Below are positions 1-6,618 of a stretch of 9,906 bases of DNA, piece after piece. Where the stretch lies: the IMG/VR virus record IMGVR_UViG_2563366903_000019; one strand, written 5' to 3'. This stretch comes from a virus. Its lineage: Duplodnaviria; Heunggongvirae; Uroviricota; Caudoviricetes. Both the position numbers and the translations under genes were made by a program. Below the pieces are notes generated by a model. It saw only the letters and a list, made by a program, of their open reading frames with translations. It did no database searches and was not told the DNA's origin. Each line of letters begins with the position of its first letter. Position 1 is the first letter of the stretch.

Positions 1-1239
1 ATGAGCAGCGCAATTCATAGACTTAGCGACACTCTTTTACGAAAATTAAGCGGATCACCAACCACAAAAAACGCCTTTTTTAATGACGGTGGCAATCTTA
101 GCGTAAGACATTCCACCAGCGGCCTGTTAACCTGGTATTTCACTTACAGGGCCGGAACTGGTAGGCAGGTATCACCGGAACGTCTGAGACTGGGCAATTA
201 TCCCGATCTGAGCCTGAAAGCAGCCCGGGAAAAAGCAGCACAGTGTCGCGCCTGGCTGGCTGAGGGGAAAAATCCGCGCTATGAGCTTAATCGTGCTGTA
301 CAGGATGCGTTAGCCCCCGTGACAGTTAAGGACGCGCTCACTTACTGGCTTGAATCGTATGCAAAGGAAAAGCGCACTGACTACGAATCACTGAAAAGCC
401 GGATCAATAAACACATAATCAGCCAGATTGGCGCTTTGCCGTTGGAAAAATGCGAGCTACGGCACTGGTTGGCATGTTTTGACCAGATGGCAAAGCGAAG
501 CCCAGTATCTGCCGGATTTTTGCTACAGGTATGCAAACAGGCGCTTAAGTACTGCCGAAAACGACGATACGCAATCAGCAACGTTCTTGATGATATGGTT
601 GTCGGTGATGTGGGAAAAAAAGCAGAAGTGAGCGAGCGCGTACTAACAAACAAGGAGCTTGGGGAATTACTCCGCGCCCTGGATGACAAAATATTCCCTC
701 CATACTACAGCGCCCTAATTCGCCTCCTGATTGTTTTTGGATGCCGTACCACTGAGCTAAGGCGCTCTGAGGTGCAGGAGTGGGATTTTAAAGAAATGCT
801 CTGGACAGTACCGAAGGAGCACAGCAAAACGAAGGTCGCCATATTCAGGCCAATACCGGAAAGCATTTTGCCGTTCGTCACGCAACTGGTGGAGCAGAAC
901 AGACACACGGGCTTATTGCTTGGTGAACTGAAAGGACAATCTTCGGTAGCAGAGTACGGAAGAACAGCGCACAGACGAATTAATCAAGCCCCTTGGACGT
1001 TACACGATATCCGGCACACATTTACAACCATGCTGAACGATTTAGGCGTGGATCCGCATATTGTCGAGCAGCTTACAGCCCACCAGATGCCAGGGATGCA
1101 GCGAGTCTATAACCACTCCCGTTATCTTGATGCAAAACGTGATGCTCTTAATCTATGGGTAGACCGTCTCGAGCTTCTCCAGAACAATGATGAAAAAATC
1201 GTTGTTATGACCCCGCGAATTTACACCCAAAATTCTTGA
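1..1239 (+). CDS. int: Tyrosine-type site-specific integrase, P4-like family
   Basis: 412-aa ORF. N-terminal arm-binding-like region (LSD...DGG..L...Y pattern), conserved Arg in GCRTTELRR, HxxR box (LHDIRHT) and C-terminal VYNHSRYLD with the presumed catalytic Tyr. ORF begins at window position 1, so the true start could lie upstream. Confidence 0.85.
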   Translation: MSSAIHRLSDTLLRKLSGSPTTKNAFFNDGGNLSVRHSTSGLLTWYFTYRAGTGRQVSPERLRLGNYPDLSLKAAREKAAQCRAWLAEGKNPRYELNRAVQDALAPVTVKDALTYWLESYAKEKRTDYESLKSRINKHIISQIGALPLEKCELRHWLACFDQMAKRSPVSAGFLLQVCKQALKYCRKRRYAISNVLDDMVVGDVGKKAEVSERVLTNKELGELLRALDDKIFPPYYSALIRLLIVFGCRTTELRRSEVQEWDFKEMLWTVPKEHSKTKVAIFRPIPESILPFVTQLVEQNRHTGLLLGELKGQSSVAEYGRTAHRRINQAPWTLHDIRHTFTTMLNDLGVDPHIVEQLTAHQMPGMQRVYNHSRYLDAKRDALNLWVDRLELLQNNDEKIVVMTPRIYTQNS

Positions 1240-1658
1240 CAAATTACGGCTGTTTTTTCTTTAAGAGATTATAGCCGTGAATAGATCTTAGAATATCGGG
1301 GAATATCTGCAAATATCTTCTCTTTATATGTGTCAACTATCGAAAAAAATTGAAATGTCTTCTTCTGAGTTCTTATTCTCTGTTACTTGATTGTTCCAAC
1401 ACCTGATGGTTTATCTATTTGTTTTTAATGAGGTAATTCAGGTGCTATGCCAAATGACGACATTTTTTGTTGCGTCGCTTAAAAACTCGTGACACGATTT
1501 TAAACACTAACGAGCTTCTACGAACCTTAGCGAACAAAGCCTTTAGCATGGTTGTGTTTTTAATTTAAGAGGTGAAAAAGAATCTAAGTAATATCCGATC
1601 TCATATATCTACAGCTAAGAGAAAAGTTTATATACGTAATTTTTATGTAGGTTTTTGT
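1240..1658 (+). promoter_or_regulatory. AT-rich int-alpA intergenic control region (presumed alpA promoter/leader)
   Basis: About 420 bp with no credible ORF and visibly lower GC than flanking genes; three AATATC direct repeats in the 1290s-1320s; strong SD-like AAGAGGTGA around 1566-1574 with no well-spaced ATG. Confidence 0.3.
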
Positions 1659-1868
1659 ATGCGTGAAATAAATGAAGATCGCGTAATCCGTGAGGATGAA
1701 TGTCGTAAGTTAACTGGAGTGTGCCGCACTACACGTTACGAACTGGAGAAAAAAGGGCGCTTTCCGTCACGTCTTAATCTGGGCGGTCGTTCTGTAGGGT
1801 GGCTGCTGTCCGAGGTTATGGAATGGGTTAAAAGCCGGGATCGCATTAATTCAGGTAAGGCAGTGTAA
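1659..1868 (+). CDS. alpA: AlpA-family phage transcriptional regulator (small HTH protein)
   Basis: 69-aa product MREINEDRVIREDECRKLTGVCRTTRYELEKKGRFPSRLNLGGRSVGWLLSEVMEWV matches the size and pattern of AlpA-type regulators. ATG at 1659 is in frame within the longer 1572 (GTG) ORF; start choice is uncertain. Confidence 0.7.
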   Translation: MREINEDRVIREDECRKLTGVCRTTRYELEKKGRFPSRLNLGGRSVGWLLSEVMEWVKSRDRINSGKAV

Positions 1869-1884
1869 AGGGGAGCATATGACA

Positions 1885-1915
1885 CATAAAACAAAGGCGA
1901 CCTGGGGCGGTCGCC
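1885..1915 (-). terminator. Putative rho-independent terminator for minus-strand transcript
   Basis: 7-bp GC-rich stem GGCGACC / GGTCGCC (1896-1902 / 1909-1915) with 6-nt loop; on the minus strand it is followed by TTTGTTTTAT. Lies about 90 nt downstream of the minus-strand gene stop. Confidence 0.4.
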
Positions 1916-2006
1916 AATGGGAAAACACTAAACATAAGCCCGAACATCATAGCGATTTGCTGGCTGGTGGGCAATGTGCTCAGTGTGCTGGCTTGCTGGT
2001 GGACTA

Positions 2007-2189
2007 TCAGCCTTTTGGTTCTATGCCTTCTTTGCGTAGCTTGTCACGACAGGCATTTTTAACCCATGAACTGAAATTACCAGGCCCAGCAACTTCGTTA
2101 ATTTGTTGCAACAATGTGTCTTCGAAGCGGATGTTTTTCTTTGTGCTGCCAGAGCGATCAAATTTTGGTTTCTCATTTTTTTCTTGCAT
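2007..2189 (-). CDS. Small ribbon-helix-helix-like DNA-binding protein (possibly YlcI/YnfO DUF3950-like)
   Basis: 60-aa ORF with a basic N-terminus, a beta-strand-like KKNIRFED, then two helices (TLLQQINEVAG, NFSSWVKNACRDKLRKE), which is typical RHH architecture. Codon usage looks coding. Own terminator downstream and palindromes upstream. It lies antisense inside the long + ORF 1879-2538, so it is ambiguous. Confidence 0.45.
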   Translation of the reverse strand: MQEKNEKPKFDRSGSTKKNIRFEDTLLQQINEVAGPGNFSSWVKNACRDKLRKEGIEPKG

Positions 2190-2234
2190 TGGTACGTACC
2201 ACCGTTATAAACTGAAACCCAATGGTACGTACCA
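2190..2234. promoter_or_regulatory. Twin palindromic operator-like sites TGGTACGTACCA
   Basis: Identical 12-bp perfect palindromes at 2190-2201 and 2223-2234 (centres 33 bp apart), immediately upstream of the minus-strand RHH gene start and about 100 bp upstream of the + strand ATG at 2335. Confidence 0.4.
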
Positions 2235-2334
2235 TATTGAAGATACGCAACCATTAAATACAGCGAAGCCCCGCAGTGGTGGAACACTCGCAGGGCTTCT
2301 AACCACCAACGATAGAAAGCGTATCGAGGTAGCT

Positions 2335-2538
2335 ATGAGAAATCATACCACACACCCGCAAGGGCGGGACTCGCACAACCTGAATAAATACATCTGGCGT
2401 TTTATCGCCCTGAGCACGGCACAACCGCGCGTGATTACCATTGAGGCCACCAGCGAACAGGAAGCACGCCTGCAATCCCCGGCTGGCTGCGTGATGGTAT
2501 TCGCCGCCCGTATTCGTCAGGGGGTGTTCCATGCCTGA
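2335..2538 (+). CDS. Small hypothetical protein (possibly host cell division inhibitor Icd-like)
   Basis: ATG at 2335 preceded by GAGGT (2326-2330). 67-aa product MRNHTTHPQGRDSHNLNKYIWRFIALS... with E. coli-like codon usage. Stop overlaps the start of the next gene (ATGCCTGA). It is the 3' part of the 219-aa ORF 1879-2538, sharing its stop. Confidence 0.45.
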   Translation: MRNHTTHPQGRDSHNLNKYIWRFIALSTAQPRVITIEATSEQEARLQSPAGCVMVFAARIRQGVFHA

Positions 2539-2851
2539 TATGTCAAATTACCAGTACCTGATTAATCCGCATTTTAACTGTGAGCATGATATTGCTAAAA
2601 AAGTTTATTCCGCTGCGGATGGGGCTACTGACAATATATCAATGGCTGTTGCCTCAATTGGTAACCTGATGTGGTATGCGTCAGAAAATGAGGAATATGA
2701 CGAAAAGGCCATGCGCATTGATATGGGTAATATCGGTTTGTTACTGGCAATGCTTGGGCAGTTTGATATTTCGTTACGGTGCACCATTGAAAATGCCAAA
2801 GATGCATTAAATGCTATAAAGAAAGCGAATACTGATTTAAATCGGGGATAA
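2531..2851 (+). CDS. Hypothetical protein (106 aa), low-GC accessory gene
   Basis: ORF with GGGGG 9 nt upstream; start overlaps upstream stop; GC visibly lower than neighbouring genes; no motif I can recognise. Confidence 0.6.
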   Translation: MPDMSNYQYLINPHFNCEHDIAKKVYSAADGATDNISMAVASIGNLMWYASENEEYDEKAMRIDMGNIGLLLAMLGQFDISLRCTIENAKDALNAIKKANTDLNRG

Positions 2852-2857
2852 ATAATC

Positions 2858-3157
2858 ATGAGAACATATTTATCTGGCTTGACTGCCAGCGGTTATGCAC
2901 ACCCCCAAATTATCCCCGGCGCTATTTATCTGGATAAGAACGGTAACAGAGTAACGGTAAAAGAACTGATGTTTGACCGAGTGTATTTTATCCGTGATGG
3001 CTATTCATTTCTTAGTTCGCTGAACGTGGAGATCTTTATTAGCAGATTCAGGCGGGAAATCCCGCTTTCCAGAAATAACCATGTGTCATGTATGGATGTT
3101 GATAAAAAACTACAGGAACTAAAAAACATGATTGCCGCGTGGAGAGAGCAGAAATGA
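2858..3157 (+). CDS. Hypothetical protein (99 aa), low-GC accessory gene
   Basis: Starts 6 nt after the upstream stop; its stop overlaps the primase ATG (ATGA at 3154-3157); low GC; no recognisable motif. Confidence 0.6.
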   Translation: MRTYLSGLTASGYAHPQIIPGAIYLDKNGNRVTVKELMFDRVYFIRDGYSFLSSLNVEIFISRFRREIPLSRNNHVSCMDVDKKLQELKNMIAAWREQK

Positions 3158-5277
3158 AAAAAGCGCCAAATTTAAAACACCAGCCACGTGACAAAATGAC
3201 GGAAGTCATCATTTTTGCGGGTAGTGATGCGTGGGCACATGCGAAGCAGTGGCAGGAACAGGACGGGCGACTGGCTGGCGACAGCGTGCCTCCTGTCTGG
3301 CTTGGAGAGCAACAACTTGCCGAACTGGATAAGCTGCAAATTGTGCCGGAAGGCCGAAAATCAGTACGCATATTCAGGGCCGGACATCTTGAGCCAGTAA
3401 TGATCAAGGCGATTGGTCAGAAGCTGGCGGCGGCAGGCGTACAGGATGCAAATTTTTACCCTGATGGAATGCACGGTCAGGAGGTGGAGAACTGGCGCGA
3501 ATATCTAGCCCGTGAGCGGCAGAATCTTTCTGATGGTCTGGTTATTGAGTTTCCGGTAAAGAAAAAAGATACCGGAAGCCATAGCGATGACGAATTAAAG
3601 CCACGCGTTGAAAGTCGCGCCGATGGTGTTTTCTGGGTAACGCCCAAAGTGGATAAGCAGTCAGGCGAAATTATCCGGCCTGAGACGTGGTTATGTTCTC
3701 CGCTTGAACTACTGGGAACGGGGACGATCGGTAAAGAGCATTACCGCGTGATGCGCTGGAAAAAAACCGCAAACCATGAAGTCATCACAATGGCGATCCC
3801 GTGTGGTGGTATCGGCGACCGTGACGGCTGGCGGTTACTTAAAGATCACGGGCTGAACGTGACAACCAACGGCAAATACAGGGCAATCCTGGCGGACTGG
3901 ATGCAGTTAAGCGGAAGCCATGAGGAATGGCAGTTAAGCACAACAACGGGCTGGCATTTTGGCGCGTACATCATGCCGGACGGTTCGATCATTGGTGAAT
4001 CTGAAAAACCGATCCTGTTTACCGGAAAAAGCGCCGCGATTAACGGTTATTCCGTGGCGGGCACGGCGGATGGCTGGCGCGACAGCGTGGCGCGTCTGGC
4101 TGGCGGTAATGCCTCAATGATGCTGGGTGTGGCAACGTCACTGGCAGCGCCTTTAATTGGCCTTGTGGGTGCTGACGGCTTCGGGGTGCATCTTTTCGAA
4201 CAGTCATCGGCAGGTAAGACCACCACGCAGAACATCGCATCAAGTTTATGGGGAGAGCCGGACGCGCAGCGGCTGACCTGGTACGGCACGGCGTTAGGTA
4301 TTGCCAATGAGGCCGAGGCCCATAATGACGGGCTTTTACCACTGGATGAGATAGGCCAGGCCGGAAATGCGCGGGAAGTGTCAACGTCTGCTTATACGCT
4401 GTTTAACGGTTCAGGGAAATTGCAGGGGGCGAAGGATGGCGGCAACAGGGAGATCAAACACTGGCGAACGGTGGCAATCAGCACCGGAGAAATGGACGTT
4501 GAGACATTCCTCAAAAGTGAGGGGATAAAAGTTAAGGCGGGGCAGCTTGTCCGACTGCTTAACGTTCCGATGGAAAAAGCCACGAAATTTCACGAATACA
4601 GCAACGGTAAGGAACATGCTGACGCGTTAAAGGATGCCTGGACAGCAAATCACGGGGCGGCGGGTCGTGAGTGGGTTAAATGGCTGGCAGGCCACCAGCA
4701 GGAGGCAAAGGATACGGTAAGGGAATGCCGCGAACGGTGGCGCAACCTGATACCGGAGAGCTACGGCGAGCAGGTCCACCGCGTGGGTGAACGTTTCGCC
4801 ATACTGGAGGCCGCGCTTGTGCTTTCCGGTCATGTAACTGGCTGGGTCGTGCAGGAATGCCGCGACGCGATACAGCATAACTTTAATGCCTGGGTGAAGG
4901 AGTTCGGCACGGGTAACAGGGAATTTAAACAGATGGTTGAACAGGCTGAGGCGTTTTTGTCGTCGTTTGGGTTTAGCCGCTACCTTCCGTACCCCAATAC
5001 AGATGAGCGTGATTTACCGATTAAAGAGCTTGCCGGATACAGAAAAGGGAGCATTCGCAACGAAGATGACGAGATGCGCTATTACACGTTCCCGCACGTG
5101 TTTGAGAGTGAGATAGCGAAGGGATTTAATCCGGCGCATTTTGCGCGTGCCCTGGATGCTGCCGGAATGCTGGAGAAGGGAAGCGATCGCCGATACAAAA
5201 AAAAGGCGCTGGGCAAGATTGGGGGTAAGCAGCATGTTTTTTACGTGCTGATGTTCCAGCCTGATGATGAAGATTAA
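3154..5277 (+). CDS. Primase/helicase-like replication initiator (P-loop NTPase; DUF927/P4-alpha-like Pri-Rep class)
   Basis: About 707-aa ORF from ATG 3154 (SD GGAGAGAG at 3141-3148); ORF track gives a GTG at 3139. Walker A-like EQSSAGKTT; position immediately upstream of the iteron array matches satellite replication proteins. Confidence 0.8.
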   Translation: MKKAPNLKHQPRDKMTEVIIFAGSDAWAHAKQWQEQDGRLAGDSVPPVWLGEQQLAELDKLQIVPEGRKSVRIFRAGHLEPVMIKAIGQKLAAAGVQDANFYPDGMHGQEVENWREYLARERQNLSDGLVIEFPVKKKDTGSHSDDELKPRVESRADGVFWVTPKVDKQSGEIIRPETWLCSPLELLGTGTIGKEHYRVMRWKKTANHEVITMAIPCGGIGDRDGWRLLKDHGLNVTTNGKYRAILADWMQLSGSHEEWQLSTTTGWHFGAYIMPDGSIIGESEKPILFTGKSAAINGYSVAGTADGWRDSVARLAGGNASMMLGVATSLAAPLIGLVGADGFGVHLFEQSSAGKTTTQNIASSLWGEPDAQRLTWYGTALGIANEAEAHNDGLLPLDEIGQAGNAREVSTSAYTLFNGSGKLQGAKDGGNREIKHWRTVAISTGEMDVETFLKSEGIKVKAGQLVRLLNVPMEKATKFHEYSNGKEHADALKDAWTANHGAAGREWVKWLAGHQQEAKDTVRECRERWRNLIPESYGEQVHRVGERFAILEAALVLSGHVTGWVVQECRDAIQHNFNAWVKEFGTGNREFKQMVEQAEAFLSSFGFSRYLPYPNTDERDLPIKELAGYRKGSIRNEDDEMRYYTFPHVFESEIAKGFNPAHFARALDAAGMLEKGSDRRYKKKALGKIGGKQHVFYVLMFQPDDED

Positions 5278-5299
5278 TCCCCTGTGTGAGGAAAAAAAT

Positions 5300-5615
5300 T
5301 GCGGGTTATGCGGGTTATCCTGTGTATAAGTGTATTAAGTGCATGAATATAAAGGAAACCAATAACCCGCACGTAACCCGCAAAAGGGCATTTATAACCC
5401 GCAAAAGCACGATTATAACCCGCAGGCGAATAACTGAAGTAACACCGGACAGTCATGCGTAACCCGCAGAAAAAACCCCGTTTGCGGGTTATTTTGAGCG
5501 TTTTGCGGGTTACGTGGTGAGCAAATAATAAACAGGGCGTTTTGCAAAATACTGATATAAAAGGATAAAAAATGGTTAGCACGCTAAGATAACCCAATAA
5601 CCCGCATAACCCGCA
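5300..5615. repeat. Iteron array / putative origin of replication
   Basis: About 11 copies of RTAACCCGCA in both orientations (5300-5309, 5310-5318, 5362-5371, 5373-5382, 5394-5403, 5415-5424, 5459-5468, 5483-5492, 5504-5513, 5597-5606, 5607-5615) plus an AT-rich stretch at 5520-5590, directly downstream of the replication gene. Confidence 0.75.
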
Positions 5616-5647
5616 CATGTTTCTATATATATAAATTGAGGTGGCAA

Positions 5648-5899
5648 ATGACCAGAACACGCAGAGACAGAACAGAGCCAAAATATAAAGCGTTAGACAT
5701 GACTGAGCACACCTTAAAGGTGGCAATCAGAACGATAGACCGCCACACGCGGGAAGGATACGCGAAGGAACATCCCGACCTGATAAGCGCATTCATGACC
5801 ACGGCGGCGGCAAACTTTGCCACGCTGACAGAACGGGAGATTGCCGAAGCGGAACAGGTAACAACCATCAACGTTAAAACCGGAGAGGTGGAATCATGA
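5648..5899 (+). CDS. Hypothetical protein (83 aa)
   Basis: ATG at 5648 with GAGGTGG just upstream; stop overlaps the ssb start (ATGA at 5896-5899), indicating translational coupling. Confidence 0.55.
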   Translation: MTRTRRDRTEPKYKALDMTEHTLKVAIRTIDRHTREGYAKEHPDLISAFMTTAAANFATLTEREIAEAEQVTTINVKTGEVES

Positions 5900-6306
5900 C
5901 AGCACAGATAGCGGCTTACGGTCGGCTGGTGGACGACCCGCAGGTAAAACAGACCAGCAAGGGCACACCGATGACGCTGGCGCGTATGGCGGTATCACTG
6001 CCATGCAGTCAGGCACAGGACGGACAGGCGACGTTATGGCTATCGGTCATCGCATTTGGTAAGCAGGCCGACTTCCTGGCTAAACATCAAAAAGGCGACG
6101 TTGCCAGCGTATCCGGCACGATGCAGGTCAGCCAGTGGACCGGACAGAACGGGGAGACGCGTCAGGGTTATCAGGTTATTGCAGACAGCGTAATCAGTGC
6201 CCGTGCGGCACGTCCTGGCGGGAACAGACGCAAAACCACAGGCGCACAGGGTAATCAGCCACCAGCGGGAGGCGATGACCCTTACGGTGATGATATTCCG
6301 TTCTGA
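5896..6306 (+). CDS. ssb: Single-stranded DNA-binding protein (SSB family, short linker)
   Basis: 136-aa product with OB-fold-like core (IAAYGRLVDDPQV..., LWLSVIAFGKQADFLAKHQKGDVASVSGTMQVSQWTGQNGETRQGY) and the hallmark acidic C-terminal tip DPYGDDIPF. SD GAGAGGTGG upstream. Confidence 0.85.
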   Translation: MTAQIAAYGRLVDDPQVKQTSKGTPMTLARMAVSLPCSQAQDGQATLWLSVIAFGKQADFLAKHQKGDVASVSGTMQVSQWTGQNGETRQGYQVIADSVISARAARPGGNRRKTTGAQGNQPPAGGDDPYGDDIPF

Positions 6307-6316
6307 GGGGGTGACG

Positions 6317-6589
6317 ATGGTACATGACCGCATAGCGGAAGAACTCGAAGCGAAAGGATTTTACCGGAGGGCGGCGGCGCGATGGGGTGAAGTCATGCAG
6401 CTGGTGGAGACAGACAAGGAACGGCATCAGGTTACGATGCGACGGCTGGAATGTTCCAGGAAGGCACAGAGGCCACCGGAGCCGCCGGATAACTTCGGAG
6501 ACCTGAGAAAGGCAGTCGATCGCACTTATGCTGAAATGGGTATAGATGGTGTAAGCGATGAAATATGGCGTAATTACCCAGGCAGCTAA
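6317..6589 (+). CDS. PerC-family transcriptional regulator-like protein
   Basis: 90-aa product MVHDRIAEELEAKGFYRRAAARWGEVM... matching the PerC/Pch-like N-terminal motif as I recall it. SD GGGGG 5 nt upstream of ATG 6317; the ORF track's 6197 extension overlaps ssb. Confidence 0.65.
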   Translation: MVHDRIAEELEAKGFYRRAAARWGEVMQLVETDKERHQVTMRRLECSRKAQRPPEPPDNFGDLRKAVDRTYAEMGIDGVSDEIWRNYPGS

Positions 6590-6594
6590 TCAAC

Positions 6595-6618
6595 AGCCGG
6601 AGTAATCCGGCTTTTTTG
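6595..6618 (+). terminator. Rho-independent terminator
   Basis: Stem AGCCGG / CCGGCT with loop AGTAAT, followed by TTTTTT. Confidence 0.6.

Follow-up and report, generated by a model that had tools for sequence, protein, structure and literature searches.

What a pair of short, AT-rich genes is doing directly upstream of the primase of a phage satellite is the question raised by the viral record IMGVR_UViG_2563366903_000019, a stretch of 9,906 nucleotides (nt) that was analysed as a whole and is referred to here as the window. The two open reading frames, ORF1 (106 amino acids (aa), 2531–2851, plus strand) and ORF2 (99 aa, 2858–3157, plus strand), lie in what is, judging from its gene content, an integrative Escherichia coli phage satellite, namely a phage-inducible chromosomal island (PICI) of the EcCICFT073 type. 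A sequence-only reading of the same DNA had described them as a low-GC cassette inserted in front of the primase, in which no motif was recognised and to which helper-interference, anti-defence or defence functions were tentatively ascribed. The analysis reported here removes this candidate new defence system and puts in its place a divergent allele of a known regulator, encoded by ORF2, and a small orphan protein, encoded by ORF1. The reading favoured here, with a confidence slightly better than even, is that the segment constitutes the variable middle of the PICI early operon, in which ORF2 would be a swapped DUF4222 allele acting in trans on the host and ORF1 an optional hairpin protein.

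Two genuine genes in an AT-rich slot

ORF1 and ORF2 are packed between an icd-like gene (2335–2538, plus strand; NCBIfam phage_ICD_like, 2.4e-19) and a DUF927-type primase/replicase gene (3154–5277, plus strand; Pfam DUF927, 1.6e-48; phrog_1139, DNA primase). The ATG of ORF1 (2531) overlaps the stop codon of the icd-like gene (2536–2538) by 8 nt, the gap between ORF1 and ORF2 is of 6 nt, with a GGGGA Shine–Dalgarno motif, and the ORF2 stop and the primase ATG (3154) overlap as ATGA (3154–3157), the primase start being supported by RefSeq. Both genes were intact in seven of seven diverged copies, and all pairwise ratios of nonsynonymous to synonymous substitution (dN/dS) were below 1 (median about 0.3), demonstrating that ORF1 and ORF2 are under purifying selection. 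Together with the matches to phrog_15327 and DUF4222 described below, these observations indicated that they are genuine genes rather than chance reading frames. Thus, the two small genes that had been proposed to precede the primase were confirmed at the same coordinates, tightly packed and intact.

The GC content of ORF1 (0.393) and ORF2 (0.417) is visibly lower than that of the icd-like gene (0.574) and of the primase (0.537), as had been noticed from the sequence, and the difference extends to third codon positions (GC3 of 0.38 and 0.45 versus 0.65 and 0.58, respectively). However, this is a trait of the slot and not of this cassette alone. All slot alleles of E. coli PICIs were AT-rich, with GC values of 0.37–0.47 for the upstream small genes and 0.40–0.51 for the DUF4222 genes, against 0.50–0.59 for the flanks. 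Since every allele of the slot shares this property, low GC alone is no proof of a recent foreign insertion, and since the slot is never empty, allele replacement rather than insertion is indicated. The earlier notion that the cassette had been inserted was therefore abandoned, as the slot is always occupied and its alleles are swapped by recombination.

ORF2 as a divergent member of the DUF4222/RgdR family

ORF2 matched Pfam DUF4222 (PF13973) over residues 17–67 with an E-value of 1.4e-16 and 60.2 bits, the gathering cut-off being 27, and aligned with RgdR (ECs1581) at 29% identity (E 7e-12). RgdR is a 99-aa protein of O-island 51 (OI-51) of enterohaemorrhagic E. coli (EHEC) that regulates type III secretion (T3S) and motility (PMC3378721, PMC10877973). 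It was demonstrated that RgdR alone activates LEE1 (locus of enterocyte effacement, LEE) and T3S and represses motility, that Congo-red binding is increased in its presence, and that its binding to DNA is weak and non-specific (PMC3378721, PMC10877973), the LEE, motility and DNA-binding phenotypes being known from experiments on ECs1581, C1493 and ECED1_1787 (PMC3378721). The ORF2 protein is basic (pI 9.6), keeps all the residues invariant in satellite DUF4222 proteins according to an alignment of 10 diverse members (G7, S11, G12, G21, D26, G29, R46, G48, Y49, F60 and F64), and is encoded where the family is expected, directly 5′ of a replication initiator gene and overlapping it. Residues 20–22 of ORF2 are PGA (P20-G21-A22), whereas RgdR sensu stricto is defined by RGD, a motif whose residues affected RgdR activity (PMC3378721). 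These features identify the predicted ORF2 product as a new divergent member of the known DUF4222/RgdR family, and as a core gene by position. The earlier statement that no motif could be recognised consequently holds for ORF1 in Pfam, where no match was found, and fails for ORF2; similarly, the supposed lack of a described homolog stands for ORF1 and falls for ORF2, whose relative RgdR has been studied experimentally (PMC3378721).

The structure model obtained for ORF2 was unreliable (pLDDT 49), owing to a shallow alignment containing close homologues only, and the many SH3-like small barrels returned by Foldseek (PWWP, Hfq, Tudor), none of them significant, can be taken as no more than a lead. 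Neither the ORF1 nor the ORF2 family matched PDB sequences in profile searches, and a profile search of genome contigs with the DUF4222 alignment gave one locus, the pattern being too narrow.

A fixed slot with exchangeable content

In 16 of 16 annotated E. coli loci, the same order was observed, consisting of an icd-like gene, one to four small genes, a DUF4222 gene (95–100 aa) and a replicase, and in all of them the DUF4222 gene overlapped the replicase start by 4 bp. DUF4222 also runs into the replicase in 11 further viral-contig loci that carry alleles other than the window type, the overlap being 4 bp in 10 and 1 bp in one, and the genes of the slot are always small (57–154 aa). DUF4222 is thus a core gene with a fixed position, and its alleles are exchanged independently of the accompanying replicase. 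In this regard, the sequence-only reading was to be given up if the genes proved to be invariant core genes with a replication role; by its presence in the 16 and the 11 loci DUF4222 comes close to this, although no replication role is assigned to it and its sequence is far from invariant.

The comparison with EHEC OI-51 illustrates the exchange, since the window primase is 97% identical to ECs_1582 while the adjacent DUF4222 proteins share only 29% identity, and three other small genes (ECs1578-1580) take the place of ORF1. The replaced segment extends from the icd 3′ end to the last 15 codons of ORF2, so that the predicted variability of the locus was borne out beside a nearly identical primase. 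The replicases found downstream of the slot belong to four catalytic families (DUF927, two types of ‘DNA primase family’ and RepA helicase), which have in common an N-terminal domain of about 125 aa, 50–90% identical, with the remaining sequence unrelated. This shared domain (window 3154–3540; also L002-L005, L015 and L020-L022) is without a Pfam family. At the DNA level, it is joined to the 3′ tail of DUF4222 in a single conserved block. Discrete types can be distinguished among the DUF4222 alleles; that of the window is 88–99% identical within its group and 28–39% identical to the others. Window-type DUF4222 precedes replicases R1 and R2, and the RgdR type precedes R1, R3 and R4; the replicase N-domain is 89–90% identical between elements with different DUF4222 alleles, and the allele tracks neither the N-domain nor the catalytic core.

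The breakpoints of these exchanges are recurrent. Similarity between the window and five elements (L002-L006) stops at 2533–2539 and resumes at 3113 in four of the five (L002, L003, L005 and L006) and at 3152 in the fifth. The icd 3′ end (about 2497–2534) constitutes a conserved left recombination arm, and this left flank matched 1733 E. coli genomes versus 447 for the whole cassette, while the right arm comprises the last 15 codons of ORF2 and the replicase N-terminal domain of about 125 aa (3113–3540, plus strand). A further, internal junction is provided by the first 12 codons of ORF2 (MRTYLSGLTASG; 2858–2893, plus strand). Chimeric alleles were found at both ends of the gene, as one ORF2 (L015) combines a window-type core with the RgdR-type tail NVFRGKK, and two loci (L179/L180, on the same contigs as L073/L050) carry the first 12 codons of ORF2 on an RgdR-type core, downstream of a 93–94% identical ORF1. 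These observations demonstrated that the DUF4222 core is exchanged by homologous recombination, with junctions at the icd 3′ end, in the first 12 codons, and in the 3′ tail plus replicase N-domain. Considering the recurrent breakpoints, the L015 tail and the L179/L180 chimeras, the cassette is a recombination-shuffled haplotype and not an insertion. The ORF1 and ORF2 haplotype is common and has been moved before at least two unrelated primase types.

Distribution and linkage of the two genes

ORF1 was found in 474 E. coli genomes at 513 places, and the ORF2 core in 472 genomes at 509 places; some 9% of complete E. coli genomes carry the pair. Among the 74 viral-contig loci that could be scored, 72 carry both genes 6 nt apart, and the other two join ORF1 to an RgdR-type core. 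Distant relatives of ORF1 are separated from DUF4222 by intervening genes or occur with no DUF4222 at all (L010, L011, L110 and L111), and at RgdR-type loci the upstream neighbour is free to vary, as in L005 versus L020, where the DUF4222 proteins are 93% identical and the neighbours 7%. Because the pair splits, its relatives occur without DUF4222 and the neighbours of the RgdR type vary, the linkage between ORF1 and ORF2 looks historical rather than functional. The description of a two-gene cassette is therefore justified as regards the near-perfect co-occurrence in E. coli, but the genes are not an obligate pair, as revealed by the L179/L180 split. A universal rule placing an acidic partner upstream of a basic DUF4222 protein was also considered and rejected, since it held in the annotated E. 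coli loci and failed in viral-contig loci.

In E. coli CREC-629 (H105, NZ_CP024815.1), six places match the ORF2 core, and ORF1 also reaches up to six copies per genome. Such multiple copies imply that several related satellites can share one chromosome.

ORF1, an acidic orphan with a predicted helical hairpin

ORF1 belongs to the phrog_15327/phrog_6805 family and matched phrog_15327 over its full length (residues 1–106; 5.7e-71). The protein is acidic (pI 4.7), and the core of its family, IGxLM...Y...DM..IG, includes the invariant residues M47, Y56 and G69 and the near-invariant G44, L46, D64 and M65 (43 sequences). An exhaustive HMMER search of 1.84 billion proteins recovered homologues that reduced to 16 representatives at 50% clustering, and a profile search widened the family to 124 clusters of about 30% identity, from Klebsiella, Erwinia, Serratia, Raoultella and Phytobacter among others. 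In all contexts examined, the homologues lie within the run of small genes between alpA/icd and the primase of an integrative satellite, and the surrounding synteny is conserved in Klebsiella, Erwinia and Serratia satellites. The family can thus be described, from its predicted members, as small, satellite-restricted and confined to Enterobacterales, and ORF1 itself is demonstrably an optional member of the pool of small genes between icd and DUF4222. The AlphaFold2 model is an antiparallel helical hairpin (pLDDT 87), for which Foldseek searches against PDB and BFVD returned generic hairpins only (E ≥0.46), from which a function is not derivable. As judged from these searches, ORF1 is an orphan without a functional homologue, belonging to a small satellite family.

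A remote homology of ORF1 to the 72–85-aa slot proteins of phrog_2196/5796 was suggested by motif likeness perceived by eye and was rejected, as the hhalign probability was 0.9% and Klebsiella operons carry both kinds of gene together. In NCBI and UniRef, many of the Klebsiella, Erwinia and Serratia homologues (P0074-P0160) bear the name ‘ubiquinol-cytochrome C reductase’. This name was likewise discarded, since Pfam gave no match for ORF1 and NCBIfam none for ORF1 or its Klebsiella homologue, and with no model of either database behind it the name looks like a propagated misannotation. In Klebsiella pneumoniae (L007-L009), a satellite with an ORF1 homologue was found between phage capsid genes and Dit/tail genes; this element may be helper-embedded, that is, integrated in the late region of a prophage.

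DUF4222 in phages and in the e14 element of K-12

When 50,697 phage genomes were searched by tblastn, neither the window-type nor the Klebsiella short DUF4222 alleles gave a match. The RgdR query led to a 59-aa phage form of DUF4222 (Pfam 7.9e-19), contained in 111 phage records. Those that were inspected have it in the early-right operon after cII, where it mostly overlaps the replication gene O directly; in one inspected phage, an antirepressor-like gene comes between DUF4222 and the replication gene. The phage gene is often unannotated, a minus-strand reading frame or an out-of-frame 112-aa ‘YmfM’ being given in its place. For instance, a minus-strand hypothetical gene is annotated at 3438–3725 of two records (L024/L025; MK416017, ON470622) over the plus-strand DUF4222 frame (3480–3659). 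In ON470622, gene O is annotated from 3724, and its frame opens at an ATG at 3649; in MK416017, the annotation of O is limited to a short 3′ fragment (4291–4617).

An unannotated 59-aa DUF4222 frame was also detected in e14 of K-12 (NC_000913.3, 1204001–1204180; L030, 5502–5681; Pfam 8.6e-19, 67 bits). It starts with TTG, preceded 7 nt upstream by a GGAGA Shine–Dalgarno motif, is located within the 3′ half of ymfM in a different frame, and shares an overlap with the beginning of ymfN/oweE. Within the overlap, codon positions 1, 2 and 3 of the DUF4222 frame carried 6, 3 and 25 substitutions, respectively, between divergent phages, with a dN/dS of about 0.02 in that frame and of about 6 in the YmfM frame, and the non-overlapped N-terminal half of YmfM is constrained in its own frame (dN/dS 0.28). 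The clone from which SfiC filamentation was assigned to ymfM contained the entire ymfM reading frame, and a search of the text of that study returned no mention of frame-specific controls. Given such a clone, and as far as that text goes, the SfiC phenotype is assignable to neither frame yet. The presence of a constrained DUF4222 frame inside ymfM means that the attribution of the division inhibition known as SfiC merits re-examination.

Functional reading and rival explanations

PICI gene expression is reported in the literature to be under AlpA control. According to the reading favoured here, AlpA would switch the island on and ORF1 and ORF2 would be expressed together with the replicase. 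By analogy with RgdR, ORF2 would act in trans as a small basic protein with weak, non-specific DNA binding and would alter nucleoid-dependent transcription of the host, and perhaps its division, when satellite replication sets in; it would not be an allele-specific cofactor of the replicase. ORF1 may be a protein-binding helical-hairpin adaptor or inhibitor of a host or helper target, as its predicted fold suggests.

A host-acting modulator was favoured for reasons that begin with replication itself. Directly 3′ of the primase, the iteron TAACCCGCA occurs in 11 exact copies in both orientations, against a chance expectation of 0.08, and it has no copy elsewhere in the window, cassette included. 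This block (5300–5615) is the probable replication origin, as inferred from its repeats, and the EcCICFT073 study describes an origin in the same position, 3′ of rep (PMC6092414). In that study, rep under pBAD plus ori sufficed for EcCICFT073 to replicate (PMC6092414). The sufficiency of rep and ori, the location of the iterons only 3′ of rep, the free exchange of alleles and the trans phenotypes of RgdR together point to an action on the host.

Some observations weigh against it. ORF2 is devoid of the R20 and D22 of the RGD motif that affected RgdR activity, and the near-universal overlap with the replicase start, found also with lambda-O-type initiators, is what would be expected of a replication accessory protein. 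As the ORF2 model is unreliable, its DNA binding is extrapolated from RgdR alone, and the function of the window allele altogether leans on the RgdR-family analogy. Moreover, the accessible part of the EcCICFT073 report does not state the exact fragment that was cloned in the replication assay (PMC6092414). The role attributed to ORF1 derives from a generic fold with no significant structural match.

The three phenotypes of RgdR resemble those of a loss of H-NS function. H-NS antagonism, which this set of phenotypes may suggest, was not proposed by the authors of the RgdR study (PMC3378721). A bolder extension, which must be considered rather improbable, is that DUF4222 proteins (ORF2, RgdR and the e14 frame) represent a widespread class of early proteins of phages and satellites that would be produced together with the replication initiator and reprogram the host as replication starts, by counteracting H-NS-type silencing or by blocking formation of the FtsZ ring. 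The DUF4222 frame would then be the cause of both the SfiC/YmfM phenotype of K-12 and the loss of motility due to RgdR, and alleles such as that of the window would have diversified against a host target.

Among the rival explanations, the one that survives best, although it is on balance unlikely, regards DUF4222 as an accessory protein of the replication module, supplied in a fixed ratio with the initiator and aiding at the origin or recruiting host replication proteins via the shared N-domain, in which case ORF1 would be unrelated cargo. It is consistent with the conservation of the 4-bp overlap with four replicase families sharing one N-domain, with the occupation of the same place before lambda-O-type initiators in lambdoid phages and e14, with the basic nature of the DUF4222 protein and the DNA binding of RgdR, and with the single conserved DNA block formed by the DUF4222 3′ tail and the replicase N-domain. 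However, rep plus ori replicates without DUF4222 in the EcCICFT073 study (PMC6092414), and DUF4222 co-varies neither with the catalytic core nor with the N-domain. The two genes are not even always contiguous, since an antirepressor-like gene is found between DUF4222 and the replication gene in some phages (L028) and a 190-aa gene between DUF4222 and the replicase in a Klebsiella element (L013). Additionally, the RgdR phenotypes are strong without induction of the island (PMC3378721).

The possibility raised by the sequence-only reading, that the pair is a variable accessory cassette for helper-phage interference, anti-defence or anti-phage defence, now appears improbable. The segment is genuinely variable beside near-identical primases, AT-rich and made of small genes, ORF1 has the acidic character of many anti-defence proteins and DNA mimics, and neither allele was found among the 50,697 phage genomes. 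On the other hand, no defence signature was detected in PADLOC, Pfam or NCBIfam, the search of PADLOC-DB giving only a DdmE fragment for ORF1 (E 0.037) and nothing for ORF2. The defence hotspots reported for PICIs are at the 5′ and 3′ ends of the islands and downstream of pri (PMC11364771). Furthermore, ORF2 is an allele of a gene that was present in every related element sampled rather than optional, the slot holds genes of 57–154 aa only, and the two genes are separable. Nothing marks ORF1 and ORF2 as a defence system, and the role first proposed for them is thus not supported.

A toxin-antidote-like module, in which growth or division would be arrested by the basic DUF4222 protein and the acidic product of the upstream gene would serve as its antidote, is very improbable. 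In its favour, every annotated E. coli locus analysed has an acidic protein ahead of a basic one, the packing of the genes is tight, the clone causing SfiC/YmfM filamentation includes the e14 DUF4222 frame and RgdR abolishes motility (PMC3378721). However, several viral-contig loci have an upstream neighbour that is basic or close to neutral (pI up to 10.4), phage DUF4222 genes have no acidic partner, relatives of ORF1 occur without DUF4222 (L010, L011, L110 and L111), ORF1 is also paired with a different DUF4222 core, RgdR alone is tolerated on a plasmid (PMC3378721), and the pair departs from type II toxin–antitoxin systems in being separable and in having no toxin or antitoxin domain in Pfam, NCBIfam or PADLOC.

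Layout of the element

The window is assigned to the EcCICFT073 type on account of its layout, with a unidirectional int, alpA and pri-rep, an iteron origin located 3′ of rep, and then PerC, genes for capsid morphogenesis and a small terminase of the Nu1 type. Upstream of the slot are a tyrosine integrase gene (1–1239), AlpA (1572–1868) and a YlcI/YnfO (DUF3950) gene (2007–2189, minus strand), and 3′ of the iterons follow, in order, the genes for a protein binding single-stranded DNA (SSB), PerC, a capsid-E-like protein, a head-decoration protein and the Nu1-type small terminase. The left arm of the window (1–6616) is 99.4% identical to the island of strain TOE17 (L001). The right arm of the TOE17 island is an HK97-type capsid-forming PICI (cf-PICI) module, and the window has the capsid-E/decoration/Nu1 module of the EcCICFT073 type. 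Near-identical left arms followed by different right arms imply that whole arms are exchanged between PICIs and cf-PICIs, in agreement with the published observation that left arms are common to both.

Some details of annotation also emerged. A long frame of 219 aa (1879–2538) ends in the icd-like domain and overlaps the minus-strand YlcI/YnfO (DUF3950) gene, and the true start of the icd-like coding sequence is uncertain, because RefSeq starts differ widely between genomes (63–158 aa). An Ash/epsilon domain was sought in this long frame and was absent. The longest PerC frame (6197–6589) reaches the PerC domain only at residue 41, for which reason the true start is probably at about 6317; in the TOE17 island (L001, 13018–13290), PerC is annotated as a pseudogene with an internal stop. 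The int-alpA intergenic region (1240–1570) is very AT-rich (GC 0.33–0.34) and is presumed to be the alpA regulatory region. An Rfam scan upstream of icd for C4/CI-type immunity RNA gave nothing credible, and a promoter/terminator scan gave results no better than those of shuffled sequence. In the Erwinia element (L010, 10945–12238), genes for RexA and RexB lie just 3′ of the primase, which fits the hotspot downstream of pri.

Comparison with known systems

ORF1 shares with WXG100/EsxB, the TraM anti-activator and HP0062 a two-helix antiparallel hairpin of about 100 aa. It differs from WXG100/ESAT-6-like proteins in having the loop SENEEYD without WXG, in a best Foldseek E-value of 0.79 and in giving no PDB sequence match, and the likeness of its model to helical-hairpin adaptors is generic. 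In the left operon of satellite P4, small genes whose products interact with helper or host, epsilon/Ash and orf151, precede the alpha primase within one early operon, a placement that the small genes of the window share. No sequence relationship was detected between that operon and the window, which has no Ash domain; Ash of P4 is described elsewhere (PMC10085698). The lambdoid phages SfII, the Stx phages and BZS1, as well as e14, carry DUF4222 between cII and gene O, overlapping the initiator as in PICIs, but the phage protein corresponds to the 59–60-aa core only, without the N-terminal SGLTASG segment and the C-terminal helix of the E. coli PICI proteins.

EcCICFT073, the prototype E. coli PICI, shows the same order as the window, with int, alpA, icd, small genes, DUF4222, primase, SSB, PerC, capsid-E-like and decoration genes. 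It differs in having four small genes (73–77 aa) in the place of ORF1 and a primase of a different family, and its DUF4222 protein, C1493, is of the RgdR type, unlike ORF2, and activates T3S as RgdR does (PMC3378721). RgdR itself (ECs1581; OI-51/CP-933C/Sp7; Flockhart et al. 2012, PMC3378721) is, like ORF2, a basic DUF4222 protein of 99 aa, and in strain Sakai it overlaps the primase ECs_1582 by 4 bp, in the same position as ORF2; the two diverge in overall sequence (29% identity), in RGD versus PGA, and in the upstream genes, which are ECs1578-1580 in one case and ORF1 in the other. These comparisons indicated that DUF4222/RgdR is not confined to EHEC and represents a fixed gene that heads the replication module in enterobacterial satellites as well as in some lambdoid phages. 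With alleles shuffled independently and four replicase families sharing an N-domain, the role of DUF4222 in the life cycle of these elements is now a well-defined question.

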